Part shown: piece by piece, positions 2,413 through 52,630 of the stretch
How positions within the stretch are numbered: position 1 is the first letter of the stretch
Layout: every line of letters starts with the position of its first letter
Source of the DNA: Mobula hypostoma
Lineage: Eukaryota
NCBI RefSeq assembly: GCF_963921235.1
Contig: NC_086097.1
Coordinates: 33,978,001 to 34,042,000 of the forward strand
Length of the DNA stretch: 64,000 bases
Direction: 5' to 3'
The notes under the pieces: generated by a model
Seen by the model: only the letters and a program-made list of their open reading frames with translations
Told to the model about the DNA's origin: nothing
The model's database searches: none
Position numbers and translations under genes: made by a program

Positions 2413-3127
2413 AAAGAATTCTGCTCACTCTTTGTTCATAAACGTAATCTCTTCATTCTGATACATCCCTTGTGGATATGTTCTGCATTTTGGTTAGTCC
2501 TTCAAGATTGTAAAGATCCTGAACTCTACATCAGACTCTAAGGAAGTAATAATACTTGCGTGTAGTGGGTTCAAGTGGTCCGCTAAATCACTATTGATTA
2601 CTACTACTACTTCGACTCAGGCCTAGGGGCCTAATGCAAGGTAAGGCAAGGCACTATTGATTGCCTGCGTTACATCATTGTTCAAAGTCACAGTTGCATG
2701 TCCAAGCCCAACAACGTAGAATCATTTGGAGACATAGCATGGAAACAGCCCCTTCAGCCCATCAAGTCAATGCTCACTATCAACCACCCATTTATACTAA
2801 TCCTACATCAACCCCATTTGTTTATTCTCCACACATTCTCATTTTTCTCCAACCTGCTGGTACACTAGGGGCAACTTATACTGGTCAATTAGCCAAGCAA
2901 CACATACATTCTGCTATTGCCCACCGCTGTTGGCTGTTCCTTCAAATGCCTGGACCATCAGATCTAGAGTTCTATCCCTCGACTTTCTGCTTCTTTACAT
3001 TTCCTCAAGATGCTACTTTAATCCAGGTTTATGGTCTATGATTTTGACGAGCTGTCTTAATGTCATATTAAATATCATGTTTGTTTGATAGCGCTCCTGT
3101 AAACCTCCTTGGGGTATTTCATTGCTT

Positions 3128-3572
3128 AATGGCAATGAATGGGTGAACATTTGAGGGGCATTTGATGGCTCTAGGCCTGTACTCGCTGGAGTTCAGAATA
3201 ATGAGTGGAATCTCACTAAAACCTATCGAATAGTGAAAGGTCCCAGTAGAGTGGATGTGGAGAGGATGTTTCCTATAGTGGGGGAATCTAGAACCAGGAG
3301 GCACAGCCTCAGAATAGAAGCTTTAGAATACAGGTAAGGAGGAATTTCTTCAAGCAGAGGGTGGTGAATATATGGAATTCATTGCCACAGATGGCTGTGG
3401 AGGCCAAGTTACTGGGTATATTTAAAGCGGAGGTTGATTAGCAAGGATGTCAGATGTTATGGAGATAAGGCAGAAAAACGGGGTTGAGAGAGATGATAAA
3501 TCAGCCATGATGAAATGATGGAACAGACTCGATGGGCCAAATGGCCTAAGTTTGCTTCTGGATCTTATGACC
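3128..3572 (+). mobile_element. CR1 LINE 3' fragment
   Basis: Degenerate LGLYSLEFRRMRG...SRTRGHSLRI coding plus the CR1 3' UTR. Confidence 0.8.
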
Positions 3573-6524: not shown

Positions 6525-8033
6525 GGATCTAGTGCTTTCCCGGTGTATATGCCGAATAAACTCTTCTTTGGCTTCCAGCCAGGTACAGGTATCGACCGTA
6601 ACAGGCGATTTGATGACAAACTCCGCCATCTTCATCAGGGATGATGTCTGGGCATGTCTTGTCCTGTGATATTTATACCCCCGTCATCCGTTCCTCCTGA
6701 TTGGTTAGTCCTTATCCAATCATGTTTCCACCGTCCTACCTTGCTTACAATCGAATTCCAGTTTTTACTTACAGTGAGATCTTTGTCTTTGTTAAAATTC
6801 TTTTCCTCTAGATTTATTTCAATGGCTTCCTTCACCAGACGGTCCCAAAAGCCAATGGTACGGTTCAATAGTTTCGTGCTCTCAAAGTCAGTCCTAGGGC
6901 CATTGCAAATGCAGTATTACGCTTACCTGATTTCTCCAGGTAACCCAAATGTATGCATCTCCTGTGCTCCTTGATGCTGGTTTCCACTGTGCATCAGTGT
7001 CTGGCCGATATACGCTGTTCTGCATTCACAGGGAGTCCTGTAAATGACAGCCATCCTGAATCCCAGGTCAACTTTGACCCACGGTAGCTGTGATTTGAGC
7101 TTTCTTACAGGTTTGTGGATGGTATTGATCCAGTATTTCTTCAGGATTCTGGCGATCCTTCCAGAAACTGTGGAAATTTAGGGAAGACAGGCGGTAGTAA
7201 TGGGTTCCTCCTCATTGTTAGGTTTCCTGGATTTTCTGTCAGCTCTTTTAAGGGCCCGATTGATTTCTTTCACTTTATAGCCATTCTGTAGGAACATTGT
7301 GTGTAATCACCTTATTTCCTCGTGAAGACTCTCCGGGTTCAAAATAGTTTAAAAGGGCTGATGGAAAAACTAGGAAACCTAACGATGAAGAGGAACCCTT
7401 CACTACTGCCTGTCTTCCTGATATTTCCACAGTTTCTGGAAGGATTGCCAGAACCTTGAAGAAGTACCAGATTAATACCATCCACAAACCTGTAAGGAAA
7501 CTCAATTCACAGCTTATGCAGGTCAAAGATGACCTGGGATTCAGGACGGATGGCATTTACAGGATACCCTGTGAATGCAGAGCAGTGTATATCAGCATGG
7601 TGGAGACCCTCGTCAAGGAGCACAGGAGGTGCATCCATTTGGGAAACCTGGAGAAATCAGGTAAGCGTAATACTGCATTTGCAATGGCCCTAGGACTGAC
7701 TTTGACAGCACGAAACTATTGAGCCGTACCATTGGCTTTTGGGACTGTCTGGTGAAGAAAGCCATTGAAATAAAACTAGAGGAAAAGAATTTTAACAACG
7801 GCAAAGGTCTCACTCTAAGTCAAAACTGGAATTCGATTGTATACAAGGTGGGAAAACAGAAACCTGATTAGATGAGGACTAATCAATCAGGAGGGATGAA
7901 TGACAGGGGTATAAACACTAACGGACTAGACATGTCCAGGCATCATTCCTGATGAAGATGGCAGTCTGTGATCGAAACGTCAGTTAAAATCAATACCTGT
8001 ACTCTGCTGGAAACCTGAGAATAGTTTATTCAT
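6525..8033. mobile_element. Penelope-like (GIY-YIG) insertion made of two inverted 5'-truncated arms
   Basis: Right arm (+, ~7345-8033) encodes GIYRIPCECRAVYI...IKEH (GIY-YIG). Left arm (-, ~6545-7340) is its reverse complement. 13-bp direct repeat aataatgttaata at 6512-6524 and 8034-8046. Confidence 0.85.
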
Positions 8034-8057: not shown

Positions 8058-8625
8058 TACTCAGTAGCCACTTTGTTAAGCACCTCCTGTATCTAATGAA
8101 GTGGCCACTGAGTGTACGTCTATGGTCTTCTGCTGCTTCTGCAGCCCATTCAAGGTTTGACGTGTTGTGCATTCAGAGATGCTATTCTGCACATCACTGT
8201 TGTAATGTGTGATTATTGCAGCTTCTGTTGCCTTCCTGTCAGCTTGAACCAGTTTGGCCATTCTCGTCTGCACTCTCTCAATAACAAGATGTTTTCACCC
8301 ACACAACTGCCATTTACTGGATTTTTTTTTGTTTTTCACACCGTTCTCTGTAAACTCTAGAGACTGTTGTGCGTGAAAATCCCAGGAGATCGGCAGTTTC
8401 TGAGATACTCAAACCACCCTGTCTGGCACCAATAATTATTCTATGGTCAAAGTTACTTAGATCACATTTTTTTGTTATTCTGCTGTTTGGTCTGAACAGC
8501 AACTAAACCTCCTGGCCATGTCTGTGTGCTTTTATGCATTGAGTTGCTGCCACATGATTGGCTGATTAGATATTTGCATTAACGAGCAAGTGTACCAATG
8601 TACCTAATAAAGTGGCTGCTGAGAG
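8058..8625 (-). mobile_element. Tc1-derived non-autonomous element
   Basis: TIRs related to cactcagtggccactttattaggtac; minus strand gives DLSNFDHRIIIGARQGGLSISETADLLGFSRTTVSRVYRE (Tc1 transposase N-terminal HTH). Confidence 0.85.
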
Positions 8626-9449
8626 TATTTCATGAGCTGTAAAGATGTTTGAAAACATCATGATACAGATGATATGTTTTGAAATTACCACTTTCTTTTC
8701 CAGACATCTAATCAAAGCAGAATATTTGATGACAAATATGTTAACTTTGCCATCACCCAACCCAATTTTGTACATTATTTTGGTTTTTACTGTGTCAATC
8801 TTCATGATTATTTCATAAAACTTATTTGAATTATTACCGACACTGTCGTTTCAGCTCTGCTTGACACGCAAAGCTTTGCGTCATTCTTACCGGAATATTA
8901 ACATTTGCAAATACTTTACTGATAGTCCTATCTATATTCCATATTTGTAGCAGATACTTATCAAGATGATATGTATTGCTATAAAACATGTGTCACTTCA
9001 TTGTAAAACAGTGAAAACTGCTCACTTCAACTCTGTCCTTAGGAATTAATTTTCTTCCAGTCATTGTCATGTAGAGCTCAGAGTGAAGTCGCAAAAGAAC
9101 TTGCCATTTATTGACAATCTGCCATTGAGATGTTCTGCTGGTTTCCAGCTATCTTTTTGACAGCTCGGTGTATAAATAGCCAGATTCATATATAAATAGC
9201 TAGATTCAAGGCAGTCAAAAAGACTTCCAGTGCCGAAGTCTGCATATCTGAAGAGAGAATTTTTAAAGCCAAATGCATAGAGCCTTGTGGAATGGAAATT
9301 TCACGTTTTATATACAGCTGTGTAGAAAGTAAAAGGAAAGTATAAATTTTATTATGATAAAGCTATATCATGGACCAGCTTCATGACTCCAGTTCTCTGT
9401 AATTTTCTTAATTTTGAGTTAACCTTCACAGCCTCTCTAAGAGGTGTAC

Positions 9450-10095
9450 AGTATTTTCATAAGATGTCATTAAGAAAGCAGATGCTGTTTTATAAATACT
9501 GGCATTGAAAGTAGGTGACTATGATAAACCTTTACAAAATACTGGTTCAGCTGCACGGAAACATCTGAACTGGGTGCTGTACTTTAGAGAAACAACTAAG
9601 TGTTTCAGAGAGGGTACAAGAATTTAATAAAATGTTTCTAGGGGTGAGGAAGTTGAATTATGTGGATATACCAAAACAAAAACTGGGTTGTCCTCCTTGG
9701 AACTGATGCAGTTGCAAAGAGACATTTTAAATATCTTGTTTACTGCATAAATAGAGAAAAACTGTTACCATTGACAATCACGAACATAGAATCTGTTGAA
9801 TTGTCTAATAGTAGAGGGCATATATTTAAAATGAGGGGGTTAAGTTAAAGGAGCTGTACGAGTCAAGTTTTTTTTACACAGTAAGTGGTGGGTGTCCGGA
9901 ATGTGCTGCCGGGGTGGTAGTAGAGGCACTTAAGAGGCTCTTAGACAGGCAAATGACTGTGCAGAAAATGGAGGGACATGGAAATTATGTGGGCAAAGGG
10001 ATTAGTTTAGTTAGACATTTAATTACGAGTTTAATTAGTTCAGCTCAACTTCCTTGTCTGAAGGACCTATTCCTGTAATGTACTGTTCTAAGTCT
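9450..10095 (+). mobile_element. Old CR1 3' fragments
   Basis: Decayed CR1 ORF2 end and 3' UTR (gaaggacctattcctgtaatgtactgttcta). Confidence 0.55.
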
Positions 10096-10829
10096 AAATT
10101 AGGTCATCAGCAGCAGAATTACAAATGACACAAAGGAAAATAATTTATGCAGTGAATGCTTATGCTGTGGAAGGCCTGCAATGGGTAGCGATGGAGGCAG
10201 ATTCAATTGCAGCTTAATAAGCATCCTAAAGGAAAGTTTCACAAAAATTGCTATTCCACTTGGATATAACCACATGTATAATACATCATGCAAGCCTATA
10301 ATAAACTCTTTCCATGGATCAGTTTCTCAAAATGGATGAGAAGCTTCCCACCATTTCACTGTTGATTAGTTTGCCCAACAGTAATGAAATAAAGATCTCT
10401 ATGAAAGAATTCACTTCCCTGCCCAAGAAACCAAGAACAATGATCAAATCACTACAACCATCAATGGACCCATGGAGAGGGGCTGAATGGATTGCTCTAA
10501 CATGGAACCTGATGGACTGATTGGTTTTCTTTAACGATTTAACCATTCTGCAAATATTACTGAAAACAGATAATGGTAGAAATGCTCAAAGGAAGAAAAT
10601 TGTTTCTGTAGAGAATATTGGGGAAAGCTACTGACCAGCAATACTATCTCTATTTTTCTCTTTAGAGACGTTACTGAAATTGAATGTGATTTTAGTATTT
10701 CCTGTTTCAGCTCCTTTGATCATTTTAGTGACCTGATCCTTGTTCTTGGTTTCTTGGGAAGGGAAGAGAATTCTTTCATAAGGATCTTCCTTTGATCACT
10801 ATTGAGCCAAGCTAATCAACAGTGAATTG

Positions 10830-11228
10830 GATTTGAATTGGAACTTTGTACTATGGACTCTATTTTCCAGTCTTATAGTTCTTATATTCTGTGTTTTTTT
10901 GCCTGATCTTCACAATTTTTTATTGTGCGGGTAGGGGGATTTGGGGGTTGATCTGCCTAATCCATTTTGTTTGTTTTTTTGGGCGGGAGGAAGGATTTAG
11001 GGGTTGACGTGCCTGATCTGTTTTGTTTGTTTTTAGTGAGGTGAGGTAGATTTGGGGGTTGACGTGGCTGTTCCGTTTTTGTTCATTTTTTTGTGGGGAG
11101 ATGGGATTTGGGGGTTGGTGATTGTACTGCCTTTCCTTTCTCTTTCTTTCTTGGTTTCACGGCTACCAAGAGAATTGAAGAATTTCAGAGTTGTATACTT
11201 TGATAATAAATGACCTTTGAACCTTTGA
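10830..11228 (+). repeat. LINE-type 3' tail with internal ~55-60-nt tandem repeat (about 4 units)
   Basis: Repeated gatttgggggttga...ttttgtttgtttttt units at ~10928-11130; ends gataataaatgacctttgaacctttga. Confidence 0.6.
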
Positions 11229-11578
11229 TATAAATCAATACATCAGACTAACACCCATTTTGAGAAACTGCTGTATGGAAAGAATTAGTTAAAGGCTTGC
11301 AGGATATATTACACATACAGTTACATCTTAGTGGAATTAACAATTTTCTTGTGAAATCCATTCCATTTGTGGAACTTTATTTTGCATCAATAATTTTGGA
11401 GCAATAATGTCTTTTAAATTCTAGAAAAAGTTTCTTCCCCAAGAAGAGTAAGCCTTCTATCTTGGATCTGCAGAAAAGCATTCACTCTAGTCACTATAAT
11501 GATTAGGGCACTACAATACGTCATAGAAGGAACTGACACTAGCCAACTGATGTTTTAAGGATGCATGAAATATACTTA

Positions 11579-11781
11579 AGAACATCAGAAATAGGAGCAG
11601 GAGTAGGCCATCTGGCCCATTGAGCCTGCTCCACCATTCAATAAGATCATGGCTGATCTGGCCATGGACTCATCTCCACTTACCTGCCTTTTCCCCATAA
11701 CCTTTAATTCCCCTACTATGCAAAAATCTATCCAACCTTGTCTTAAATATATTTACTGAGGTAGCCTCCACTGCTTCATTG
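11579..11781 (-). mobile_element. CR1 3' end, short
   Basis: Reverse complement of the 3' end of the CR1 at ~33040-33240. Confidence 0.85.
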
Positions 11782-11949
11782 GCTTATTCTATCAAAAGAA
11801 AATTCTTATTTTCCCAGATGTCAGTGCCTGTACCTGTTCTAGCTCCTAAGCATTTGTAAGGATGACAATTCTGATAAAACTGATGTGAATTTTGAAGCTG
11901 GAAGAATTTTCCGTAGTTTGCCCTGCATTAAAACAGAGAAATTGAGCAT

Positions 11950-14842
11950 GGTGTCCTGAGCTGCATATATTTCAATGGAAGAAGTATCGTAGGAAAGGCG
12001 GATGAGCTCAGGGCATGGATCAACATCTGGAATTATAGCATTGTAGCCACTAGCAAGACTTGGTTGCAGGAGGGGCAGGACTCGCAGCTCAATATTCTGG
12101 AGTTCTGTTGTTTTAGATGTGAAAGAGCAGGAGGGATTAGAGGAGGAGGGGTGACATTGCTAATCAGAGAAAATGTCACAGCAGTGCTCCATCAGGACAG
12201 ACTGGAGAACTCGTCTAGTGAGACGTTGTGGGTGGAACTGGGAAATAAGAAAGGTATGACTACATTAACGGGACTATATTACAGACCATCCAACAGTCCT
12301 AATGATTTTGAGGAACAAATTTGTAAAGAGATTGCAGACTGTTGCAAGAAACATGTTGATGTACTGTAGTAGGTGATTTTTAACTTTCCACATATTGAAG
12401 AGGACTCCCATTCTATAAAAGGACTAGGTGGGATAGAGTTTGTCAAATGTGTTCAGGAAAGTTTCCTTCATCTGTATGTAGAAGTCCCAATGAGAGAGCA
12501 TGCCATACTGGATCTGCTATTAGGGAATGAGGCAGGCCAGGTGACAGAATTTTGTGTAGGGGAACGTTTTGCATTTCATGACCACAATGTCAATGGTTTC
12601 AACGTACGTATGCAAAAACATAGGTCTGGTCTGTGGGTTAAGATTCTAAACTGGAGAAAGGCCAATTTTGACCGTATCAGAAATGATCTGGCAAGTGTGG
12701 ATTGGGACAGGCTGTTTTCTGGCAAAGGTGGACTTGGTAAGTGAGAGGGCTTCAAAAGTGCAATTTTGAGAATACAAAGCTTGTATGCCCCTGTCAGAAT
12801 AAAAGGTAAAGATAGCAAGTGAAGGGAACCTTGGTTTTCAATTTCTTTTTCCTGATTAAGAGGAAAAATGGAGGTGCAAAGCCGGGATAGTGAGGGAGAA
12901 ATAAATGAGGTGCTTATGGAGTATAAGAAATGCGGGAGAACACTTCAGAAAGAAATCAGAAGGGCTAAAAGAAGGCATTAAGTTGCTCTAACAAACAACA
13001 TGAAGGAGAATCCTGAGGGGTTCTACAGATATATTAAGAGCAAAAGGATTGCAAGGAACAAAATTGGTCCTCTGGAGGACCAGAATGGTGATCCACTTGT
13101 GGATCCAAAACAGATGGGGGAGATCTTAAGTGAATTCTTTGCGTCTGTATTTACTCAGAAGATGGACACAGAGTCTACACAAGCGAGGCAAAGTGGCATC
13201 ATCATCATGCACCCTGTACAGATTACAGAGAAGGAGGCCTTTGCTATCCTGAGGCAAATCAGGGTAGATAGATTCCCTGGGCCTGACAAGGTCTTCCCTC
13301 AGACCCTATGGGAGGCAAGTGCAGAAAAAACCAGGGCCCTAGAGAGATACTTAACTCATTCTTAGCAACAGGTGAGGTACTGGAGCACTGGAGGATAGCC
13401 AATGTTGTTCCACTGTTAAAAAAGGCTCTAAGCATAAACCAGGAAATTATTGGCCGGAGAGTCTGACGCCAGTTGTGGGAAGGTTATTGGAAGGTATACT
13501 AAGGGACGGAATTATAAGTATTTGGATAGACATGGACTGATCAAGGATAGTTAGCATGGCTTCATGCATGGTAGATCATATCCAACCAATCTTATACAGT
13601 TTTTCGAGCAAGTAGACAGGAAAGTGGATGAAGGTAAGGCAGCGGATGTTGTCTACATGGGCTTTAGCAGGGTCCTTGACAAGATCCTGCATGGAAGGTC
13701 CGTCAAGAAGGTTCAGTCACTTGACATTCAGGATGAGGTAGTAAATTGGATTAGGTATTGGCTTTGTGGGAGAAGCCGGGGAGTGGTAGTAGATGGTTGC
13801 TTCTCTGACCGGAGGCTTGTGAATAATGCTGTGCTGCAGGGATCGGTGTTGACTTATTTGTTGTTGGTCATCTATATCAATGATCTGGATGATAATGCTG
13901 GTAACTGATTCAGCAAGTTTGCAGATTACACCAAGAGTTGGGGGTGTAGTGGACAACAAGGAAGGCTATCATGGCTTGCAGAGGGATCTGCACCTGCTGG
14001 AAAAATTGGCTGAAAAATAGCAGATGCAATTTAATGCAGACAAGCGTGAGATTTTGTACCAGTAGGGCCAGCCATGGTAGGTGTAGCACTGTGAACGGTA
14101 GTGCACTGAGGAATGCGGTAGAACAAAATGATCTGGGAACACAGGTCTATAATTTATTGAAAGTGGTGTCACAGGTAGAGGGGGTTGGAAACAAAGCTTT
14201 TGGCACATTGGCCTTCATAAATCAATGTACTGGGTACAAGAGATGGGATGTTATGTTGAAGTTGTATAAGACATTGGTGAAGCCTAATTTGGAGTATAGT
14301 GTGTAGTTTTGGTCACCTACCTACAGGAAAGATGTAAATACGGTTGAAAGGGTACAGAGAAAATGTACAAGGATTTTGCTGGGTCTGGAGGACATGAGTT
14401 ATAAGGAAAAACTGGATAGGTTAGGACTGTATTCCTTAGAATGTAGAAGATTGAAAGGAGATTTTTTTTTAGATGTATACAAAATTATAAGATGTACAGA
14501 TAGGGTAAATGCAAATGGGCTTCTTCCACTGAGATTGGGTGGGACTACAACCAGAGGTGATGGGTTAGGGGTGAAAGGTGAAAAGTTTAAGGGGCACATG
14601 AGGGGGAACTTCTTCACTCAGCGGGTCGTGAGAGTGTGGAATGAGCTGCCAGCACAAGCGGTGCACGTGAGCTTGATTTCAATGTTTAAGAGAAGTTTGG
14701 ATAGGTACATGTATGGTAGGGATATGGAAGGCTATGGTCCCAGTGCAGATTGATGTGAGTAGGCAGTTTTAATGATTCTGGCATGAACTAGATGGGCCAA
14801 AGGGCCTGCTTCTGCGTTGTACTTCTCTATAACTCTATGACT
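11950..14842 (+). mobile_element. CR1 LINE, degenerate ORF2 (APE endonuclease + RT)
   Basis: Broken frames giving GLYYRPSNS, AILDLLLGN, QGSVL, YINDLD, LYKTLVKPNLEY; ctctatga tail; many stops and frameshifts. Confidence 0.92.
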
Positions 14843-16254: not shown

Positions 16255-17056
16255 CACTCGGTGGCCACTTTACCTCCTGTACCTAATAAAGTGGCAACTG
16301 AGTGTATGTTCCTGGTCTTCTGCAAGTAGCCTATTTACTTCAAGGTTCAATGTGTTGTGTATTCAAAGATGCTCTTTCGCACACCACTGTTGTAATGTGT
16401 GGTTATTTCAGGTTACTTTATTATTATTTATTTTATTTCTTACATCCAAGGGAGTAAAAATCTTCATGTTGTGTCTCCGTCGCAATGCACAAGCAATAAG
16501 GAAAGGAAATGTGGGAGGACATTGGCCAAACACTAAGACTGTATACATAATTGTTTTGTATACCTGTATGTACAGTCAGATACGCAATCAGATCAGCGTG
16601 TATTGATAAATCTGATGGCCTGGTGAAAGGAGCTGTCCTGGAAATTGATGGTCCTGGTCTTAATATTGCCTTTCTGTCAGCTTGAACCAGTTTGGCCATT
16701 CTCTTCTGACCTCTCTCATTAACAAGGCACTTTTGCCCACAGACATGTCGTTTACTGGGTGAATTTTGTTTCTTGCACCATCCTTTGTAAACTCTAGCGA
16801 CTGTTGTGTATGAAAATCCCAGGAGGTCAGCAATTTCTGAGTTACTCAAACCACCCTGTCTGGCACCACCGATCAAAGTCACTTACATCATATTTCAGCC
16901 ACATTCTGATGCTTTGTCTGACCAACAGCTGAACCTCTGTACCATGACTGCATGACTCTGTATTGAGTTGCTGCCACATGATTGGCTGATTAGATTTTAG
17001 CATTAACGAGCAGGTGTACTGGTACTGGCGTACCAAATGAAAGTGACCACTGAGTA
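16255..17056 (-). mobile_element. Tc1-derived non-autonomous element with nested Rex-like 3' fragment (~16414-16662)
   Basis: Same TIRs and body as 8058-8625 (GARQGGLSNSEIADLLGFS). Confidence 0.8.
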
Positions 17057-22833: not shown

Positions 22834-23595
22834 CCTTAAAGAATATAACTCTAGGCACAAGGACAACTTCAATCCTCCTGTTATAAGACTGTCTGACAAA
22901 GATTAATTCTTTACCTCACAATCGATCTCATCATGCCAGGCTTGCATTGCACTTTCATTTAACTGTATCACAGTATCCTGTGTTATGCTATTCATTTTTC
23001 CCTGTACTACCTTGATGTACTGATATAGTGAAATGAACTGTTATGGATGGCATGTAAAACAATTTTTCACTGAACCTCAGTACATATGACAATAATAAAC
23101 CAATTATCAAGCTCCATATGCAAAACACACACATAAACACAAGAAAATCTGCAGATGCTGTCAATCCAAGCAACACACACAAAATGCTGGAGGAATTCAG
23201 CATCCGGGCAGTGTCTATGGAAAAAATACAGTCGACATTTCAGGCTGAGACCCTTCATCAGGACTGGAAAGGAAAATGAGAAGTCAGAGTAGGAAGGTGA
23301 GGGGCGGGGAGGAAAAGTACAAGGTGGTAGGTAATAGGTGAAACTGGGAGAGGGAGAGGGGTGAAGTAAAGAGCTGGGAAGTGATTGGAGAAAGAGATTG
23401 TGGTGACATCAAATGCAATAATGTGCCAGTACATGATTGGACAGAGCACTGAGCATGTGCGATTGCCAGAATGTTCAGCACGTGGCTGGGTTAAGACGTG
23501 TTTGTTTATTACTGTAAATAAAAGTTCTCTAATTCTTCCAGAATATGATTCTTTACTGTTAACCCATGGTACGTTTAAACAGAAGTAACATAACA

Positions 23596-23610
23596 TGGTG
23601 TCAGAAGTGG
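23596..23610 (+). other. Primer-binding site tggtgtcagaagtgg
   Basis: Complementary to the 3' end of vertebrate tRNA-Leu (…CCACTTCTGACACCA) and immediately follows the LTR. Confidence 0.85.
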
Positions 23611-23701
23611 TTCTGGAAGAATAATACGGGAGAATCGAGAATCAAGAATCGAAGATAATTGAAAGAAAGAGAAGATAAAAGTTCGAACTGTAAACGGTAA
23701 A

Positions 23702-25134
23702 ATGGAAGGTTTACAACCCCCACCAAAACTTCAGCTGACTGGCAACGTAGCTGAGAATTGGAGGATATTCAAACAACAGTTTGAAATATATTTATCGGCA
23801 ATCGGAGCTGATAGAAAAGTGGACAAAACTAACGCTGCAATCCTGCTCCATGTAATTGGGAATGACACAGTAGAGGTATATAACAATTTTGTCTTTGAAG
23901 ATGGAGATAATTTCAATTTGAAGTTGGTAAAGAACAGATCTGAAGTATTTTGTATACCTTAGTGTAATTTAACATATGAGCGATTTAAATACTTCACACG
24001 TGCGCAGAGAGCTACTGCAACAATCGATCAGTATGCGACTGAGTTAAGAAAGTGTAGTAGAATGTGTAAATTTGGATTGCTCACAGACTCTCTTATTAAA
24101 GATAGACTAGTTAGTGGCATTCGAAATAATGCACTGAGAGAAAGGCTTTTGCGTGAGCAAGATTTAAATTTTGAAAAAGCTTTCGCGCTCTGCAAAGCTT
24201 CTGAGACCGTAATGTCGCAGGCCGAAGAGCTTTTTGTCGAAAACTGCAATGTAAATGCCGTAAAAAAGCGCAAATATATCAAGATATATAATAATACGTC
24301 GACAAAACCAACAGGGAGTAAGACAGCGTTTGAAAGAAAAAAGTCATGTGATCGCTGTGTGTGGGAACATCGCCTAAATCAGTGTTTCGCATATGGCAAT
24401 ATTTGTTACAACTGGGTAAGATTAATAATTTTTCGCGCTGTTGTAGAAGTAGAAAGAAGGAAAATAAAATGAAACAAGTAAATGCAGTGATTGAAGATGA
24501 CCGTGAGGAATTTTATATCGATGCGCTTTATGAAAATGCTGACATGGAGAATATAAAAGCAGTAGATGCAGTGTCTGAGACGACCAAACAGGAGGCAATT
24601 GATGATTTGAAAAAGCATTGGGAGGAGGAGGTTGCTTCAGTGCAAGCCATAATGAAAGAGACACTGAGAGAATATGAGATTCAGTCTAATCACCGGCTAG
24701 AGCAAGAACACTCACAGTGGGCACAGTATAAGGAAGAAGTGAAAGCACAAGTGAAGGAATTGAGAAGTTGTATTGAAATGATGAAGTCGCAGCATGAAAA
24801 AGAGATTACACAGTTAATGAATGAATTAGATGAAGAAAAGAAGATTTGTATTTCATTACAAATGGAAGTGGAAGGAGATAGGAAAGATACAGTCCAAACA
24901 GAAGCAGGGAAGCAGATTGCTGAGGAAGATAGCATGAACTGTTTACCTGAAATTCCGGATTCTATCCAGGAGGCATGTGAGAGTATACCAAAAAGTTTAG
25001 TTGAGGTACACAAAGAAAAGCTTAAAGCAGAAAAGAAGAAGACAAAGAAGAATCACAAGAAGAGTCATGGCTCAGAGAGCGAAAAGCCATCTTCAGAGTT
25101 TCAGTTAGCTGATATAGATTTGTTTATTGGTTAA
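23702..25134 (+). pseudogene. Chimeric Gag-RABEP1-SH3KBP1 ORF (~477 aa reconstructed; one TAG at 23960-23962 and one 1-nt frameshift near 24413)
   Basis: Gag: LQLTGNVAENWRIFKQQFEIYL...IKDRLVSGIRNNALRERLLRE, then tandem CCHC knuckles (CDRCxxxHxxxxC; CYN[C][10 protein letters not shown]). The frame then stays open through host-like coiled coils to TAA at 25132-25134. Confidence 0.85.
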
Positions 25135-26226
25135 TGTTGTTATCTGTTTTTCTTTTTAAGGAAAGGAAGATGTGATTCTTCAGACGAATGCAGACGAATG
25201 CAGACGAGACAAAACATGTAAATAATAACAAGGAAACACAAGATCTGTGTGTACCACTTAGAAGGTCTACTCATGTTCGTAAACCCACAGAGAGACTGAT
25301 AGAGACTTGTTGAATTATGTATTTGCTTTGATTAACGTTGTTAATTATTTTTTTAAGGAAAGGAAGATGTGGTGATATCATGTGCAATGATGTGCCAGTA
25401 CACGATTGGACAGAGCACTGAGAATGCGCCAGGTTGCCAGAATGTTCCAGCACGTGGCTGGGTTAAGATGTGTTTGTTTATTACTGTAAATAAAAGTTCT
25501 CTAATTCTTCCAGAATAATATTCTTTACTGTTAACCCATGGTATGTTTAAACAGAAGTAACATAACAGAGATAAAGGGGGAATCTGATAGGAGATGGTAG
25601 AAGACCACAGGAGAATGGGAAAGGGGAGGAGCACCAGAGGAGGTGATGAGCAGGTAAAGAGATAAAGGAGATAAGGAGAGAGCAGGAAACAGGAATGGGG
25701 GAACAGTGAAGGAGTGGGGCCGGCGATTACTGGAAGTTCGAGAAATCGATGTTCATGCCATCAGGTATAAGGTGTTGCTCCTACAGCCTGGTTGTGGCCT
25801 CTTTGCGGAAGTAGAGGAGGCCATGGACCGTCATGTCAGATTGGGATTCAGAAGTAGAATTGAAATGGGTGGCTACTGGGAGATACTGCTTTTTCTGGCA
25901 GACGGAGTAATCTCCATATATCTTGATTCCCTTAAGAGTTATAAATCTTTCAAGACTTGCCTTGAATATACACAACAGATGAGCCTCCACAGCTCTTTAG
26001 GGAAGTAACTTCTAAAGAGGTGTTTTTGTGCTAAGTGGTTAACTCATTTTGCATCTGGGAAACTTGGTTCTAAGTACCTCATACCAGGGAAAGATCAACA
26101 CCTACTTCAGTGAGATCACCCCTTATTCTTCTAATTTTAAGAGTATAGGCCTAGTCTTAATCTCTCCAAGTATGACAAGTCTGCTAACCTGGGAATCAAT
26201 CTGTTGAACCTTCACTGCAATCCCTC

Positions 26227-30857: not shown

Positions 30858-33245
30858 CACAGGCTGTATGATGTGGTGGTTGAGGAACAGTGGAAGACTT
30901 TCCAAGAGATTTTTCATGGTGCTCAGCAAAAGTGTATTCCAGTTAAAAGCACGGATGATAAGGGTGGGAGAGCCAGCCTTGGATAGCTAAGGAAATAAAA
31001 GAAGGCATCAAACTAAAAGCAAGTGCGTACAAAGTCGCCAAGTGTAGTGGGAAACTGGAAGATTGGGAAAACTTCAGATAGCATCTGGAAAGAAACCACT
31101 ACATGAGCAATAAAGAAAGGGAAAATAGTTTATGAAAATAAGCTAGCACAAGATATAAAAATGGATAGTAAACATTTTTATAATTATATAAAGTGGAAAT
31201 TGGTGGCCAAAGTGAACGTAGGTCGCTTGGAGGACGAGAAGGTGGAATTGATATTGGGTAATGAGGAAATGGCTGAGGCTTTGATTGACTATTTTGTTTT
31301 GGATTTTATGGTGGAGGACATGACTAACATGCCAAAGAGAGATGATATGGATGCAATGGGAGGTGAGAACCTCGAAACAATAGCTATCACTAAAGAGGTA
31401 GTGCTGAGCAAACTTGTGGGCCTGAAGATAGATAAGTCCCTGGTCCTGATGGAATGCATCCCAGGTTACTGAAAGAAATGGCAGAAGTTATAGTAGAGGT
31501 TTTGGTAATGATTTACCAAAATTCTCAGGACTCTGGGCAGGTCCCGGTTGATTGGAACACAGTGAATGTCACACCACTGTTCAAAAAAGGATATAGGCAA
31601 AAGGCATGTAACTATAGGCCAGTTAGTTTAACATCTGTAGTTGGGAAAATGCTTGAAGCTCTCATTAAATAAGAAATAGCGAGGCACCTGGAAAGAAATA
31701 GATCCATCAGACAGATGGATTCAGCAAAGGCAGGTCCTGTTTGACAAAATTAATGGAGTTCTTTGGGGATATAATGAGCGCAGTGGATAGAAGGGAACAG
31801 ATGGACATTATTTACTTGGACTTCCAGAAAGCATTCGATAAGGAGCCATATAAATGACTTAGCCATAAGATAAGGATGCATAGAGTTGGGGGTGATGTAT
31901 TAGCATGGATAGAGGATTGGTTAACTAATAGAAAGCAGAGAGTTGGGATACATTGGTGTTACTCTGGTTGGCAATCAGTAGTGAGCGGTTTGCCGCAGGG
32001 GTCGGTGTTGGGCCCACAACAGTTCATGATATACATTATTGATCTGGAAGAGTGGACCGAGTGTGGTGTAGCTAAGTTTTCTGTTTATACTAAATTGAGT
32101 CGAAAAGCAAATTGTGCAGAAAATATACAGAATCTGCAGAGAGATATAGATAGGTTAAGTGAATGGGCAAGGGTCCGGCAGATGGAATATGATGTTGGTA
32201 AATGTGAGGTCATCTACTTTGAAAGGAAAAATAGAATAACAGACTACTATTTAAATGGTAAAGAACTGCAGCACGCTGCTGTGCAGAGGGACTTGGGAGT
32301 GCTTGTGCATGAATCACAAAAGGTTGGTTTGCAGGTGCAGCAGGTTATCAAGAAGGCAAATGGAATGTTGGCCTTCATTGCTAGAGGGATTGAATTTAAG
32401 AGCAGGGAGGGCCGTACCCTCCAAATATCCGGACCTGCCTCTCGGTTTTTTTGCACTACCTTACTTCCCATTTTTCTATTTTCTATTTATGATATATAAT
32501 TTAAATTTTTAATATTTACTAATTTTAACTATTTTTAATATTTAATATTTGTAATCCAGGGAGTGTGAAGCGCAGATTCAAATATCGCTGTGATGATTGT
32601 ACGTTCTACTATTAATTGTTTGGTGACAATAAAGTATAAAGTATATTATGCTGCAATTGTACAGGGTACTGGTGAGGCCACACCTGGAGTATTGCATGCA
32701 GTTCTGTTCTTCTTACTTGAGGAAGGATATACTGGCTTTGGAGTTGGTGCAGAGGAGGTTCAGCAGGTTGATTCCAGAGATGAAGGGTTAGACTATGAGG
32801 AGAGATTGAGTCATGTAGGATTGTAGTCGCTGGAATTCAGAAGAATGAGAGGAGATCTAATAGAAACTTATAAAATTATGGAAGGGTGAGATAAGATAGA
32901 GGCAGGAAAATTGTTTCCACTGATAGGTGAGACTAGAACTGGGGACATAGCCTCAAGATTCGGGGGAGTAGATTTAGGACAGAAATGAGGAGGAACTGCT
33001 TTTGCCAGAGGGTGGTGAATCTGTGGAATTCTCTGCCCAATGAAGCAGTGAAGGCTACCTCAGTAAATATATTTAAGACAAGGTTGGGTAGATTTTTGCA
33101 TAGTAGGGGAATTAAGGGTTATGGAGAAAAGGCAGGTAGGTGGAGATGAGTCCATGGCCAGATCAGCCATGATCTTGTTGAATGGTGGAGCAGGCTCGAC
33201 AGGTCAGATGGCCTATTCCTGCTCCTATTTCTTATGTTCTTACGA
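30858..33245 (+). mobile_element. CR1 LINE, 5'-truncated, degenerate RT
   Basis: NYRPVSLTSVVGK, SGLPQGSVLGP; absent from the duplicate copy near 45063. Confidence 0.92.
32411..32644 (+). mobile_element. Rex-like 3' end nested in CR1
   Basis: Near-identical to the reverse complement of ~19080-19290; tail aaagtataaagtat. Confidence 0.85.
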
Positions 33246-33660: not shown

Positions 33661-36600
33661 TCTCTAAGCCTCCCGGACATCTACATCTGCGCCAAGTGCA
33701 GCGAGATGCAGCTCCTAAGGGACTGTGTTACGGAACTGGAGCTGCAGCTCGATGACCTTCGTCTGGTCAGGGAGAGTGAGGAGTTGATAGAGAGGAGTTA
33801 TAGGCAGGTGGTCACACCGGGGCCACAGGAGGCAGACAAGTGGGTCACGGTTAGGAGGGGGAAGAGGAAGAGTCAGGTAATAGAGAGTACCCCGGTGGCT
33901 GTGCCCCTTGTCAATAGGTACTCCTGTTTGAGTACGGTTGGGGGGGGACAGCTTACCCAGGGGAAGCGACAGTGGCCGTGCCTCCGGCACAGAGTCCGGC
34001 CCTGTAGCTCAGAAGGGTAGGGAAAGGAAGAGGAGGGCAGTTGTGATAGGGGACTCGATAGTAAGGGGGTCAGATAGGTGATTCTGTGGACGCAGTCCAG
34101 AGACCCGGATGGTAGTTTGCCTCCCTGGTGCCAGGGTCCGGGATATTTCTGATCGTGTTCAAGATATCCTGAAGTGGGAGGGTGAGGAGCCAGAGGTCAT
34201 GGTACATATAGGTACCAATGACATAGGTAGGAAAAGGGAAGAGGTCCTGAAAGGAGAATATAGGGAGCTAGGAAGGGAGTTGAGAAAAAGGACCGCAAAG
34301 GTAGTAATCTCAGGATTACTGCCTGTGCCACGCGACAGTGAGAGTAGGAATGCGAAGAGGTGGAGGATAAATACGTGGCTGAGGGATTGGAGCAGGAGGC
34401 AGGGATTCAAGTTTTTGGATGATTGGGACCTCTTTTGGCGCAGGCGTGACCTGTACAAAAAGGACGGGTTACACTTGAATCCTAGGGGGACCAATATCCT
34501 GGCAGGGAGATTAGCGAGGGCTACTGAGGTGACTTTAAACTAGAATGGTTGGGGGGTGGGAATCAAATTAAAGAGGCTAGGCGAGAGGAGGTTAGTTCAC
34601 AACAGGGGGATGGAAACCAGTGCAGAGAGACAGAGGGGTGTAAAGTGAAGGTAGAAGCAAAAAGTAGTAAGGAGAAAAGTAAAAGTGGCAGGCCGACAAA
34701 TCCAGGGCAAGCATCAAAAAGGGCCACTTTTCAACATACTTGTATAAGGGCTAAGAGAGTTGTAAAAGAGCGCCTGAAGGCTTTGTGTGTCAATGCAAGG
34801 AGCATTTGTAACAAGGTGGATGAATTGAAAGTGCAGATTGTTATTAATGATTATGATATAGTTGGGATCACGGAGACATGGCTCCAGGGTGACCAAGGAT
34901 GGGAGCTCAACGTTCAGGGATATTCAATATTCAGGAGGGATAGACATGAAAGAAAAGGAGGTGGGGTGGCGTTGCTGGTTAAAGATGAGATTAACGCAAT
35001 AGAAGGGAAGGACATAAGCTGGGAAGATGTGGAATCGATATGGGTAAAGCTGCGTAACACTAAGGGGCAGAAAACACTGGTGGGAGTCGTGTACAAGCCA
35101 CCTAACAGTAGTAGTGAGGTCGGAGATGGTATTAAACAGGAAATTAGAAATGTGTGCAATAAAGGAACGGCAGTTATAATGGGTGACTTCAATCTACATG
35201 TAGATTGGGTGAACCAAATTGGTAAAGGTGCTGAGGAAGAGGATTTCTTGGAATGTATGCGGGATGGTTTTTTGAACCAACATGTCGAGGAACCAACTAG
35301 AGAGCAGGCTATTCTAGACTGGGTTTTGAGCAATGAGGAAGGGTTAATTAGCAATCTTGTCATGAGAGGCCCCTTGGGTAAGAGTGACCATAATATGGTG
35401 GAATTCTTCATTAAGATGGAGAGTGACATAGTTAATTCAGAAACAAAGGTTCTGAACTTAAAGTGGGGTAACTTTGAAGGTATGAGACGTGAATTAGCTA
35501 AGACAGACTGGCAAGTGACACTTAAAGGATTGATGGTGGATATGCAATGGCAAGCATTTAAGAATTGCATGGATGAACTACAACAATTGTTCATCCCAGT
35601 TTGGCAAAAGAATAAATCAAGGAAGGTAGTGCACCCGTGGCTGACAAGAGAAATTAGGGATTGTATCAATTCCAAAGAAGAAGCATACAAATTAGCCAGA
35701 AAAAGTGGCTCACCTGAGGACTGGGAGAAATTCAGAGTTCAGCAGAGGAGGGCAAAGAGCTTAGTTAGGAAGGGGAAAAAAGATTATGAGAGAAAGCTGG
35801 CAGGGAACATAAAAACTGACTGTAAAAGCTTTTATAGATATGTAAAAAGGAAAAGATTGGTAAAGACAAATGTAGGTCCCCTACAGACAGAAACAGGTGA
35901 ATTGATTATGGGGAACAAGGACATGGCAGACCAATTGAATAATTACTTTGGTTCTGTCTTCACTAAGGAGGACATAAATAATCTTCCAGAAATAGTAGGG
36001 GACAGAGGGTCCAGTGAGATGGAGGAACTGAGCGAAATACATGTTAGTAGGGAAGTGGTGTTGGGTAAATTGAAGGGATTAAAGGCAGATAAATCCCCAG
36101 GGCCAGATGGTCTGCATCCCAGAGTGCTTAAGGAAGTAGCCCAAGAAATAGTGGATGCATTAGTGACAATTTTTCAAAACTCGTTAGATTCTGGACTAGT
36201 TCCTGAGGATTGGAGGGTGGCTAATGTAACCCCACTTTTTAAAAAAGGAGGGAGAGAGAAACCGGGGAATTATAGACCGGTTAGCCTAACGTCAGTGGTG
36301 GGGAAACTGCTGGAGTCAGTTATCAAAGATGTGATAACAGCACATTTGGAAAGCGGTGAAATCATCGGACAAAGTCAGCATGGATTTGTGAAAGGAAAAT
36401 CATGTCTGACGAATCTCATAGAATTTTTTGAGGATGTAACTAGTAGAGTGGATAGGGGAGAACCAGTGGATGCGGTATATTTGGATTTTCAAAAGGCTTT
36501 TGACAAGGTCCCACACAGGAGATTAGTGTGCAAACTTAAAACACACGGTATTGGGGGTAAGGTATTGATGTGGATAGAGAATTGGTTAGCAGACAGGAAG

Positions 36601-37680
36601 CAAAGAGTGGGAGTAAACGGGACCTTTTCAGAATGGCAGGCAGTGACTAGTGGGGTACCACAAGGCTCAGTGCTGGGACCCCAGTTGTTTACAATATATA
36701 TTAATGACTTGGATGAAGGAATTAAATGCAGCATCTCCAAGTTTGCGGATGACACGAAGCTGGGCGGCAGTGTTAGCTGTGAGGAGGATGCTAAGAGGAT
36801 GCAGGGTGACTTGGATAGGTTGGGTGAGTGGGCAAATTCATGGCAGATGCAATTTAATGTGGATAAATGTGAAGTTATCCACTTTGATGGCAAAAATAGG
36901 AAAACAGATTATTATCTGAATGGTGGCTGATTAGGAAAAGGGGAGGTGCAACGAGACCTGGGTGTCATTATACACCAGTCATTGAAAGTGGGCATGCAGG
37001 TACAGCAGGCGGTGAAAAAGGCGAATGGTATGCTGGCATTTATAGCAAGAGGATTCGCGAACAGGAGCAGGGAGGTACTACTGCAGTTGTACAAGGCCTT
37101 GGTGAGACCACACCTGGAGTATTGTGTGCAGTTTTGGTCCCCTAATCTGAGGAAAGACATCCTTGCCATAGAGGGAGTACAAAGAAGGTTCACCAGAATG
37201 ATTCCTGGGATGGCAGGACTTTCATATGAAGAAAGACTGGATGAACTGGGCTTGTACTTGTTGGAATTTAGAAGATTGAGGGGGGATCTGATTGAAACGT
37301 ATAAAATCCTAAAGGGATTGGACAGGCTAGATGCAGGAAGATTGTTCCCGATGTTGGGGAAGTCCAGAACGAGGGGTCACAGTTTGAGGATAAAGGGGAA
37401 GCCTTTTAGGACCGAGATGAGGAAAAACTTCTTCACACAGAGAGTGGAGAATCTGCGGAATTCTCTGCCACAGGAAACAGTTGAGGCCAGTTCATTGGCT
37501 ATATTTAAGAGGGAGTTAGATATGGCCCTTGTGGCTACGGGGATCAGGGGGTATGGAGGGAAGGTTGGTGCAGGGTTCTGAGTTGGATGATCAGCCATGA
37601 TCATAATAAATGGCGGTGCAGGCTCGAAGGGCCGAATGGCCTACTCCTGCCCCTATTTTCTATGTTTCTAAGTTTCTATG
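33661..37680 (+). mobile_element. Young, nearly full-length CR1 LINE: ORF1 (SGNH esterase) + ORF2 (APE + RT)
   Basis: ORF1 motifs VIGDSIVRG, GTNDI, DGLHL. ORF2 34549-37581 has GVPQGSVLGP and FADD and only one in-frame TGA (36928-36930). (tttctatg)n tail. Confidence 0.96.
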
Positions 37681-39973: not shown

Positions 39974-41708
39974 GATGATATGGAACCAGAGGAAATAGCA
40001 GAGGTACTTAATGAATACTTTACTTCAGTATTCACTATGGAAAACGATCTTGGTGATTGTAGTGATGACTTGCAGCAGACTGAAAAGCTTGAGCACATAG
40101 AAATTAAGAAAGAGGATGTGCTGCAGCTTTTGGAAGCATCAAGTTGGATAAGTTGCCGGGACTGGATAAGATGTACCCCAGGCTACTGTGGGAGGTGAGG
40201 GAGGAGATTGCTGAGTCTCTGGTGATGATCTTTGCATCATCAATGGGGACAGCAGATGTTCCGGAGGATTGGAGGGTTGCGGATGTTGTTCCTTTATTCA
40301 AGAAATGGAGTAGAAATAGCCCAGGAAATTATAGACCAGAGAGTCTTACTTCAGTGGTTAGTAAGTTGATGGAGAAGATCCTGAGAGGCAGGATTTATGA
40401 TCATTTGGAGAGGTATAATATGATTGGGAACAGTCAGCATGGCTTTGTCAAGGGCAGGTCGTGCCTTACGAGCCTGATTGAATTTTTTGAGGATGTGACT
40501 AAACACAGTGATGAAGGAAGAGCAGTAGATAAAGTGTATATGGATTTCAGCAAAGCATTTGATAAGGTACCCCATACAAGGCTTATTGAGAAAGTAAGGA
40601 GGTATGGGATCCAATGGGATATTGCTTTGTGGATCCAGAACTGGCTTGCCCACAGAAGGCAAAGAGTGGTTATAGATGGGTATATACTGCATGGAGGTCA
40701 GTGACTGGTGGCGTGCCTCAGGGATCTGTTCTCGGACCCTTACTCTTTGTGATTTTTAGAAATGACCTGGATGAGGAAGTGGAGGGATGGGTTAGTAAGT
40801 TTGCTGATAACACAAAAGTTGGAGGTGTTGTGGATAGGGTGGAGGGCTGTCAGAGGTTACAGCGGGACATTGATAGGATGCAAAACTGGGCGAGAAGTGG
40901 CAGATGGAGTTCAACCCGGATAAGTGTGAAGTGGTTCATTTTGGTAGGTCAAATATGATGGCAGAATATAGTACTAATGGTTAGACTCTTGGCAGTGTGG
41001 AGGATCAGAGGGATCTTGGGGTCCAAGTCCATTGGACGCTCAAAGCAGTTGCGCAGGTTGACTCTGTGGTTAAGAAGGTATACGGTGTATCGGCCTTCAT
41101 CAATCGTGGAATTGAATTAAGGAGCCGAGAGGTAATTTTGCAGCTATATAGGATCCTGGTCAGACCCCACTTGGAGTACTGTGATCAGTTCTGGTCGCCT
41201 CTCTACAGGAAGGATGTGGAAACCATAGAAAGGGTGCAGAGGAGATTTACAAGGATGTTACCTGGATTAGGGAGCATGCCTTATGAAAACAAGTTGAGGG
41301 AACTCAGCCTTTTCTCCTTGGAGTGACGGAGGATGAGAGGTGACCTGATAGAGGTGTATAAGGTGATGAGAGGCATTGATCATGTGGGATAGTCAGAGAC
41401 TTTTCCCCAGGGATGAAATGGTTGCCACAAGAGGACACAGGTTTACGGTGCTGGGGAGTAGGCACAGAGGAGATGTCAGGGGTAAGTTTTTCACACAGAT
41501 AGTGGTGAGTGCATGGAATGGGCTGCCAGCAACGGTGGTGAAGGCAGATATGATAGGGTATCTTAAGAGACTTTTGGATAGGTACATGGTGCTTAGAAAA
41601 ATAGAGGGTTATGGGTAAGCCTAGTAATTTCTGAGGTAGGGACATGTTTGGCACAACTTTGTGGGCTGAAGGGCCTGTATTGTGCTGTAGGTTTTCTATG
41701 TTTCTATG
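39974..41708 (+). mobile_element. CR1 LINE, 5'-truncated RT half
   Basis: SQHGFVKGRSCLTSLIEFFE, GVPQGSVLGP; (tttctatg)n tail; candidate TSD atgattt. Confidence 0.93.
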
Positions 41709-51094: not shown

Positions 51095-52630
51095 TGGTGA
51101 CGCCGCAGCCATGGGAGGATGGACAACAGGGCAGGTACCACTGACGCCGCCGGGGCAAAAGAAAGCTCAATGGGGCTCAGCAATTCACACCACAAGGTCC
51201 ACCCTGAAGCTCTTCAGATACAATGGTACCAGCGCCTGGCACCTTACCTGGCACAAGTCAAACTTGCCGCATGGCGCAACGGGTGGAGGCCGTTGGAAGG
51301 AGGAATGGGGGGAGAACTGGGCAGCAGAACGTGCCACGTGGGAGAAAGCCTGGGGGTATTTGCAGTAGATCTCCACCACTGCGCTCAGCATAGCTACCCC
51401 TAGTTCCCTCCCACAGCCCAGGAAGAGCTTGCTCGTCATGTCTTTGTAAAGGTGATGACACGAGAGCGCTTTGGCAGCATGTTCAACTGATCTCACCATC
51501 ATCGCTGGCAGAGGCAGGGAGGGCAGAAGCAATCTTAGCCCTCCAGGGCATTCCAGCATTGCCTCACATGCCACGAGCCCAGGCTCGTGTCACTGAGGCA
51601 GAGACAGGTCTGACCGGTGCACTGCCAGTACCACCGGTGCCACGGAACGATCTCTGCTGCTGTTGTGATGAGACCCAGGACTGCCCCCACACCAGCACCA
51701 TGCCACAGCCCAGTGCAGCTGGCGGTGGCTGACCACTTTGGGGTTGCAAAGACATTGGGCAAGCTACGGGAATGCTTCTGCTGGCCTGGGTATAGGCAGG
51801 ACATGGAGCTGTTTGTACACTGTTGCAGTGCTTGCATGCCCCAGAAGGGGCTGGACCCCCAGTCTAGGGCATCAATCCAGCAGTACATGGCAGGGGCCCC
51901 AATTCGAGACTACTGCCCTTTCCAGATGAAAGGACTATTCCTCAAGCTGGGAAGCCACTGGAAGGTGCTGGGAGAGGTGATCAGCCGCATCTTTGATGTG
52001 GTGTATCGGATGAAGTTACCTGAATGGCGGAAAGCAGTTGTGCGCGTTGGGATTGGCTGGCACTGTACCGGCCCTTGGCCACCACCAATTCAGCAAGGAC
52101 GAAAGGAGGAAGTGACACACTGGGTGCCTTGCCTCTTGCCTCACAGTTCCTCCTCTGGGTGGGGGGGGCGCTCCAGAAACCTCCCCCACCCCCAGCGTCT
52201 CAGGTGGCAGCATCAACCACCACCAGGACTTTTGGACTTTGGTGTAGACTCTGGGGTTGCTGTGGACGGCTGACCCCTCAAGTTGGGGCAGTGTGAAGTT
52301 CCCGGGGGGGGGGGGGGTGGCAAGGTCGACAGCATTCCTATGACCAGTGCTGTCTATTGTTCTTTCATTAAAATGCCTTCATAGGGGTTACGGTGAGATG
52401 TTCAAGTTCATTTATTGTCACATTTTAGCTTGGGTTATACGCAGGTGTGGTTGTGGGTCACCCCAACTGTAACTGGGGGAGTGTAATAATCACCTCCTCC
52501 ATCTGTATGTGACTGAGTGGATTCTCTCCCAGGATCATAGTTCCTGGTCTGTTTTTGTGTTTATCACAATAAAAACAGTTGTTGAGTTTAACGAGCATAC
52601 TCATCTGTCAAGGACTGAATGCTCGCTACA
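51095..52630 (+). mobile_element. Internally deleted Gypsy-type LTR element with 3' LTR only
   Basis: PBS-like tggtgacgccg; gag-like RYNGT...YLAQVKLAAWRNGW; integrase zinc-binding HFGVAKT...WPG...CSAC and GPY/F-like KLGSHWK...DVVYRMKL; purine tract, then tgtga...ctaca LTR (52292-52630). Confidence 0.7.

Follow-up and report, generated by a model that had tools for sequence, protein, structure and literature searches.

Pieces of three spliced host mRNAs in a putative Gypsy-type LTR element of rays, probably gained by serial template switching

We found that a 2.17-kb LTR element (2,169 bases) of Mobula hypostoma carries pieces of three host genes, RABEP1, SH3KBP1 and SLU7, within a frame that is open from 24352 to 25134. 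The element occupies positions 23399-25567 of the window, by which we mean the whole 64-kb stretch of DNA that was analysed. Since each of the three pieces crosses intron positions, as known from other vertebrates, without carrying an intron, our data support a route through spliced mRNA. We consider it very probable that a non-autonomous Gypsy-type family of rays captured the three mRNAs serially by template switching and that the element described here is a dead retrotransposed copy. An earlier note on this DNA had proposed a captured RABEP1 fragment, a reading that was right but incomplete: the cargo comes from three genes, and two more pieces lie downstream of RABEP1 in the same frame.

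Anatomy of the element and its surroundings

The element lies on the forward strand between two target-site duplications of five identical bases, GAGAT (23394-23398 and 25568-25572). Its 5' LTR of 197 nt (23399-23595) has TG...CA ends, and right behind it begins, with TGG, a primer-binding site (23596-23610) that we take to resemble the 3' end of tRNA-Leu. A gag-like ORF (23702-24533) is interrupted by a stop codon (23960-23962) and shifts frame near 24410-24415. It contains decayed zinc-knuckle-like motifs close to its 3' end, and a Pfam search of this ORF returned no family. Over 24326-24533, the end of gag shows 70% identity to the stretch that precedes the protease in a gene model of Hypanus (P0004, described below). 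Behind the cargo we found a short element tail (25084-25170) in which the chimeric frame reaches its stop (25132-25134) before a first polypurine tract begins (25158-25170). This tail is followed by a second, longer tail (25171-25367), in which the polypurine tract stands in functional position (25355-25367) and whose frame is presumably integrase-tail-like. The second tail repeats 48 nt at 81% identity to 25127-25174. In sister contigs the LTR starts at 25171, directly behind the first polypurine tract (tract and TGTG together span 25158-25174, with loose ends at 25174). Judged from these sequences, the doubled 3' tail (25084-25367) looks like one more template switch. The 3' LTR comprises 200 nt (25368-25567) and is identical to the 5' LTR at 185 of 197 aligned bases, with 3 gap columns, a divergence of 6%.

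The window copy contains no protease, RT or integrase core; pol is absent in addition to gag being broken. This copy cannot move alone, and we found no second copy of the element within the 64-kb window. The gene order in sister copies is gag end, protease, RT start and cargo, and RT and integrase cores are absent from all copies seen. The position of the protease directly before RT excludes the Copia order. The protease of P0004 is of retroviral type, with a match at E 0.001 that lies below the Pfam cut-off, and the Atlas agrees for a second gene model, P0030. The Atlas neighbours of P0030 include K02A2.6-like polyproteins, which is a lead only. The best reading of these sequences would be a non-autonomous Gypsy-type LTR family of rays.

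Other repeats are present in the window. A near-complete CR1-type LINE (34082-37581) contains part of a GDSL-esterase ORF1 (E 2e-15) and an endonuclease-RT frame of 800 residues, and more CR1 pieces lie at approximately 31858-33100 and 40108-41700. An ORF at 51614-52273 with an integrase zinc-binding domain (PF17921, E 2e-9) is a remnant of another LTR element. On the reverse strand, an ORF at 19303-20061 matches PF09004 (E 7e-13), a domain that we take to sit at the 3' end of fish LINE ORF2; it is not a true ALKBH8 gene. A second reverse-strand ORF (16436-16882) has a weak homeodomain-like HTH match (E 6e-5) and is probably a Tc1-like transposase remnant, with related repeats near 8100-8600 and 56350-56870. 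We also observed a long inverted repeat (6625-7962; arms of approximately 630 bases, 85-88% complementary, with a 97-base spacer) and a G/T-rich 56-base unit in 3.3 tandem copies (10937-11117).

Three host pieces and the introns they lack

The RABEP1 fragment had been placed at 24538-24735 by the earlier note, and this span of the forward strand translates without a stop to the 66 residues that were given there. Pfam, protein alignments and contig edges put the real edges at 24534-24736, inside an LTR element that is complete in its LTRs, target duplication, primer-binding site and polypurine tract. Pfam assigns the piece to Rabaptin (PF03528, positions 75-140; 100.3 bits against a cut-off of 26.7, E 1.5e-28), as had been proposed, while the other four families listed for it reach E 0.012 or worse. 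This specific match rules out a generic coiled coil. Starting from 24535, 56 of 67 residues are identical to RABEP1 of Narcine bancroftii, and 44-48 of 65-67 to RABEP1 in eight entries from bony vertebrates; RABEP2, identical at 32 of 65 residues vs 56 of 67 for Narcine RABEP1, was rejected as the donor. Calling the fragment N-terminal was roughly accurate, given that it corresponds to approximately residues 87-153 of the ray protein by a hand count. We found no full-length RABEP1 gene or paralogue here: only Pfam positions of approximately 75-140 of 486 match with high identity, and the piece is flanked by gag and by pieces of other genes.

The RABEP1 piece consists of the end of one host exon and the start of the next. 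An exon junction had been suspected near MK/ET, and a host intron position, known from other vertebrates, indeed falls between MK and E at window 24658/24659 and is crossed without an intron, with 125 bases of the piece before it and 78 after. Here and below, we deduced intron positions from database ORFs of other vertebrates that pass from exon into intron, not from M. hypostoma loci. Among 144 proteins examined, 82 carry the exon-end motif ending in (I/V)MK or its RABEP2 form. Of these carriers, 53 turn to G and unrelated sequence, 13 stay RABEP1, 14 continue with D or E (13 resemble RABEP2 or a related paralogue and one is short), one continues with V and one ends. The G that follows MK is accounted for by G/GT and therefore indicates a phase-1 intron. 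Five more ORFs enter RABEP1 at ETV or DTV, and one more row with this feature proved to be a full-length protein. The sole read-through ORF of cartilaginous-fish type (P0165) is identical to Narcine at 59 of 68 residues over the exon and has the same exon bounds, so that cartilaginous fishes have probably retained the intron. Among the proteins encountered was also an unnamed Logan protein (P0020) in which a kinase domain is joined to two RABEP1 exons of mammalian type; it probably reflects a fused transcript or a chimeric assembly unrelated to the element.

The second piece derives from the C-terminal coiled coil of SH3KBP1 (CIN85) and spans 24733-24876, as determined from PDB matches, alignments, contig edges and a tree. 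RABEP1 and SH3KBP1, which are both interaction adaptors, share the four nucleotides GAAG at 24733-24736. The piece matches the C-terminal coiled coil in PDB entries 2n64 (E 6e-12) and 5abs (E 8e-12). It is identical to Mobula and Pristis SH3KBP1 at 45 of 48 residues, to other rays at 43-44 of 48, to six named sharks at 41-43 of 48, and to bony vertebrates at 30-34 of 46-48. CD2AP was rejected as the donor of this piece: besides SLU7 and two chimeras, the 120 matches listed are all SH3KBP1 or unnamed SH3 proteins. An intron position lies between LQ and MEV (24861/24862), where six entries depart, either after LQ (P0048, P0224, P0246, P0264 and P0282) or one residue later (P0248). The window keeps MEVEG, only 15 nt beyond this position. 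An in-frame linker of 24 nt (24877-24900) comes next; it is unlike both the SH3KBP1 continuation and the sequence upstream in SLU7, recurs in a second copy (run X16, record 24), and probably derives from the element.

The third piece (24901-25083) comes from SLU7 and was defined by word search, BLASTP, alignment and contig edges. An Atlas search of 24880-25131 gave no usable match and a Pfam search of the piece no family; it was the word search that found SLU7. The piece is identical to Amblyraja radiata SLU7 at 44 of 58 residues by BLASTP and at 48 of 60 by alignment. None of the 30 matches listed for proteins shorter than SLU7 is a ray element copy. An intron position lies between KQIA and EED (24921/24922), where 8 of the 30 matches listed turn, by eye, to V and unrelated sequence (P0292, P0296, P0297, P0299, P0307, P0311, P0313 and P0315), and where P0306 reads V and then skips ahead. 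A second position, between SLVE and VHK and probably at 25005/25006, rests on two proteins (P0311 and P0292).

The edges of the pieces could also be read from individual contigs. Among the matches listed for run X16, single contigs depart from the window at 24534, 24733, 24901 and 25083 and continue, by hand translation, with what precedes the piece in RABEP1, SH3KBP1 and SLU7 and with what follows it in SLU7, respectively, as these stand in ray proteins. The 4-nt overlap of RABEP1 and SH3KBP1 is seen in the same data, record 15 stopping at 24736 and the SH3KBP1 contig beginning at 24733. The piece edges are fixed by these departures into host-gene sequence; the contig that departs at 24534 may alternatively be an undeleted sister copy.

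Sister copies, donor and route of capture

We found three chimeras among the 30 matches listed, all of them predicted gene models in which junctions may hide predicted introns. P0003 of Hemitrygon akajei (XP_072880776.1) consists of gag/protease, RABEP1 and SH3KBP1 and is named 'rab GTPase-binding effector protein 1-like', the kind of mis-annotation that the earlier note had anticipated. P0004 of Hypanus sabinus (XP_059819315.1) is also annotated as a gene. Both run from the gag end through the protease and RABEP1 (from ELK to QYK or LYK) into SH3KBP1, and the RABEP1/SH3KBP1 join of the window recurs in these two stingray gene models. P0030, from H. akajei, is without RABEP1: its order is protease, RT start, 128 residues of SH3KBP1 and element tail, with RT joined to SH3KBP1 at a shared EVIKK (five residues). 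The proteases of P0004 and P0030 are identical at 95 of 111 residues, and the two proteins diverge right behind the protease, into RABEP1 vs RT and then SH3KBP1. The SH3KBP1 piece of the window equals the last part of the SH3KBP1 stretch of P0030. Since P0030 is without RABEP1 and the window piece is the end of its stretch, SH3KBP1 was most likely the earlier capture, whose front part RABEP1 then replaced. The window copy would since have lost the protease and approximately 27 RABEP1 codons by internal deletion and gained SLU7.

We then considered contigs that map to the element. In the DNA-type run X1, 2,671 contigs map to the element, and 1,726 of these are less than 95% alike. Record 7 of this run bridges gag and RABEP1 with 17 differences in 175 nt, and being diverged yet bridging, it indicates that the deleted form is not private to the window copy. 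Record 8 bridges both the RABEP1 intron position and the RABEP1/SH3KBP1 junction, and one contig is without SLU7 (joint 24827-25085). In run X16, record 24 bridges linker and SLU7 with 24 differences in 256 bases; records 16 and 24 extend fewer than 31 letters past the RABEP1/SH3KBP1, SH3KBP1/linker and SLU7/tail junctions and were not counted as bridging those. The summed contig depth in X1, which is not copy number, is approximately 9,000-12,400 over SH3KBP1, 2,600-3,300 over RABEP1 and 400-1,100 over SLU7, a ranking that fits nested subfamilies. Fourteen runs from four coded organisms contain 27-35% of the sampled words, X1 being the one of these for which contigs were mapped, and run X21 (raw DNA, approximately 6% read) yielded 20 partial A/G-rich reads only. 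None of the runs listed with these words is recorded as RNA, which says nothing about expression. Taken together, the diverged bridging contigs and the stingray gene models point to secondary retroposition of copies with shared switch points.

The earlier note had suggested identifying the donor by a tree, and this succeeded for SH3KBP1. In a tree of 22 rows, comprising the P0030 cargo and 21 host stretches with the shorter window piece left out, the P0030 cargo groups with Mobula and Hemitrygon (98/90) inside the rays (100/99). The donor of SH3KBP1 was thus the host's own lineage, and this nesting rules out a horizontal donor. For RABEP1 and SLU7 the donor was ranked by identity only: the best match is a ray in both cases, with one ray species available for each.

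We propose that host mRNA was co-packaged in an element particle and that the reverse transcriptase jumped over to it and back at short shared words, such that parts of three spliced host mRNAs would now stand where RT, RNase H and most of integrase had been. SH3KBP1 would have taken the place of RT to integrase, and RABEP1 subsequently that of the linker between protease and RT together with the front part of the SH3KBP1 piece. In a third step, SLU7 would have entered the tail and a deletion would have fused the gag end to RABEP1, in either order. Every stage would have retained the LTRs, primer-binding site and polypurine tract and could have been recopied by the enzymes of intact relatives. 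We found that LTRs, 5-bp target duplication, primer-binding site and polypurine tract enclose the cargo and that partial mRNA replaces internal element sequence. The words shared at the junctions comprise 4 nt at RABEP1/SH3KBP1, an apparent 4 nt at gag/RABEP1, and the five residues at RT/SH3KBP1 in P0030; 4 nt is short.

In the classical model of retroviral transduction, host sequence is acquired by read-through and splicing from an integrated element. An element in a RABEP1 intron could have gained the RABEP1 piece in this manner, followed by one template switch back. Indeed, the piece starts at ELK in P0003 and P0004, within approximately one codon of the exon start marked by 25 read-through ORFs. 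However, a clean splice keeps both glutamates of EELK while the sister copies have one, and the SH3KBP1 and SLU7 pieces start inside exons; we regard this route as improbable. Processed pseudogenes made by LINEs and inserted or recombined into the LTR element at the DNA level would likewise be without introns, and CR1-type LINEs with RT and endonuclease are abundant in the window. Against this route, which we consider very improbable, the RABEP1 and SLU7 pieces are internal, SH3KBP1 stops before its stop codon, no poly(A) or inner target duplication was seen around the cargo pieces, and the pieces replace element sequence rather than interrupt it. Three such events adjacent in one frame would also be unlikely.

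We give still less credence to domestication of the chimera as a host gene, or to an artefact of assembly. The sister copies are annotated as genes, and two runs, guessed to be of RNA, contributed contigs that cover the element, with strand and start unreadable from these contigs. Domestication is nevertheless at odds with the broken gag, the private changes and the divergence of the LTRs. The same junctions recur in diverged contigs of independent runs and in the annotations of two other species, which excludes an assembly artefact for those junctions. Serial template switching is the reading that we retain below.

Fate of the cargo and relation to known captures

We reasoned that the cargo is most likely a passenger and that the window copy is decaying. 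This copy looks dead, given its broken gag, LTRs 6% apart and few changes common to copies. Most residue changes are private to single copies, with 3 of 22 variable RABEP1 columns common to all three copies. Alternatively, the cargo might be kept by selection, with an open Gag-cargo frame shielding the RNA from nonsense-mediated decay or the fused coiled coils, namely the oligomerising coil of CIN85 and the coil of RABEP1, aiding entry of the element's Gag or RNA into helper particles, which we find unlikely. All three of the junctions read in the window are in frame, for which the chance probability is approximately 0.05-0.10, and P0003, P0004 and P0030 add further in-frame joins. With a pooled in-frame share of chance shared words of 0.38-0.46, five junctions give 0.008-0.021, although a count that includes gene models is biased, since these are predicted from open frames in the first place. 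The in-frame junctions count against pure accident, which is suggestive only. The cargo frame of 221 codons is open although gag has a stop and a frame change, but an open frame of this length is expected with a probability of 0.40 at 3% decay and 0.22 at 5% (indels ignored), so that selection on the window copy is unsupported by its open frame. Few columns differ from the host in all copies (3 of 67 for RABEP1 compared with Narcine, 0 of 48 for SH3KBP1 compared with Mobula), but fast amplification after capture also gives few shared changes. The purine fraction is 0.66-0.71 in the pieces and 0.72 in the element leader, compared with 0.51 in the window. Purine richness of pieces and leader may favour switching, and could explain the bias to coiled-coil or charged exons, without any protein role. 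In favour of selection, PMC3597677 reports it for 37% of the 51 fragments of host origin examined there within transposon consensus sequences. A further-reaching idea, which we hold to be doubtful, is that a Gypsy lineage of stingrays and their relatives might act as a serial exon-shuffling vehicle in which non-autonomous elements acquire host coiled-coil exons in succession, only in-frame captures spread, the cargo aids particle entry or escape from RNA decay, and small RNAs match the three host mRNAs.

The capture process itself is known as LTR-mediated retroposition, and the ray family is a further case of it. The maize LTR retrotransposon Bs1 contains partial exonic sequence from three host genes that are not linked to each other (Elrouby and Bureau 2001, 2010, as cited in PMC5131818), and by this account resembles the ray family in its three-gene cargo and in having copies with common switch points. 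Bs1 is described there as a gene with 1-5 copies per Zea genome. The ray family, in contrast, is from a vertebrate, presents staged intermediates with one, two and three genes and many diverged contigs in one run, and its copy described here is dead. In the animal LTR-mediated retrocopies described in Tan et al. 2016 (PMC5131818), host mRNA replaces internal ORFs, junctions have short shared words and secondary retroposition occurs; multi-gene chimeras include a mouse locus with four genes. The ray element is like these in its missing introns, in partial mRNA in place of internal sequence, in keeping both LTRs and in being recopied. The cases in that account are 3-15 young loci per species, mostly in single or few copies, from six species that include no cartilaginous fishes, whereas at least three ray genomes share the junctions described here. 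In crocodilians, ERVs took up the mRNAs of KIT-ligand and nectin3 and multiplied to nine and six copies, as single genes with long ORFs for which purifying selection is shown in the reported analysis (PMC4299795). The ray element differs in its short pieces, its three genes and its Gypsy type. Abrusan et al. 2013 (PMC3597677) describe host protein fragments fixed in transposon families with a hub bias, which RABEP1 and SH3KBP1 fit as interaction adaptors; the main text of that paper does not name rabaptin or SLU7. Our literature search, with most subscription journals outside its scope, found no description of the ray family, and the main text of the manta-ray genome preprint names none of RABEP1, SH3KBP1 and SLU7.

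Copies of this family are already filed as RABEP1-like or uncharacterised stingray genes, and they may distort gene-family counts as well as the mapping of reads to RABEP1, SH3KBP1 and SLU7. The family would be a good example of a known process if its cargo is no more than a passenger. We propose that it is clearly to the germ line of a vertebrate what Bs1 is to maize and that its intermediate stages survive as sister subfamilies, such that selection on cargo reaching a master copy and the favouring of in-frame joins would become testable within one family.
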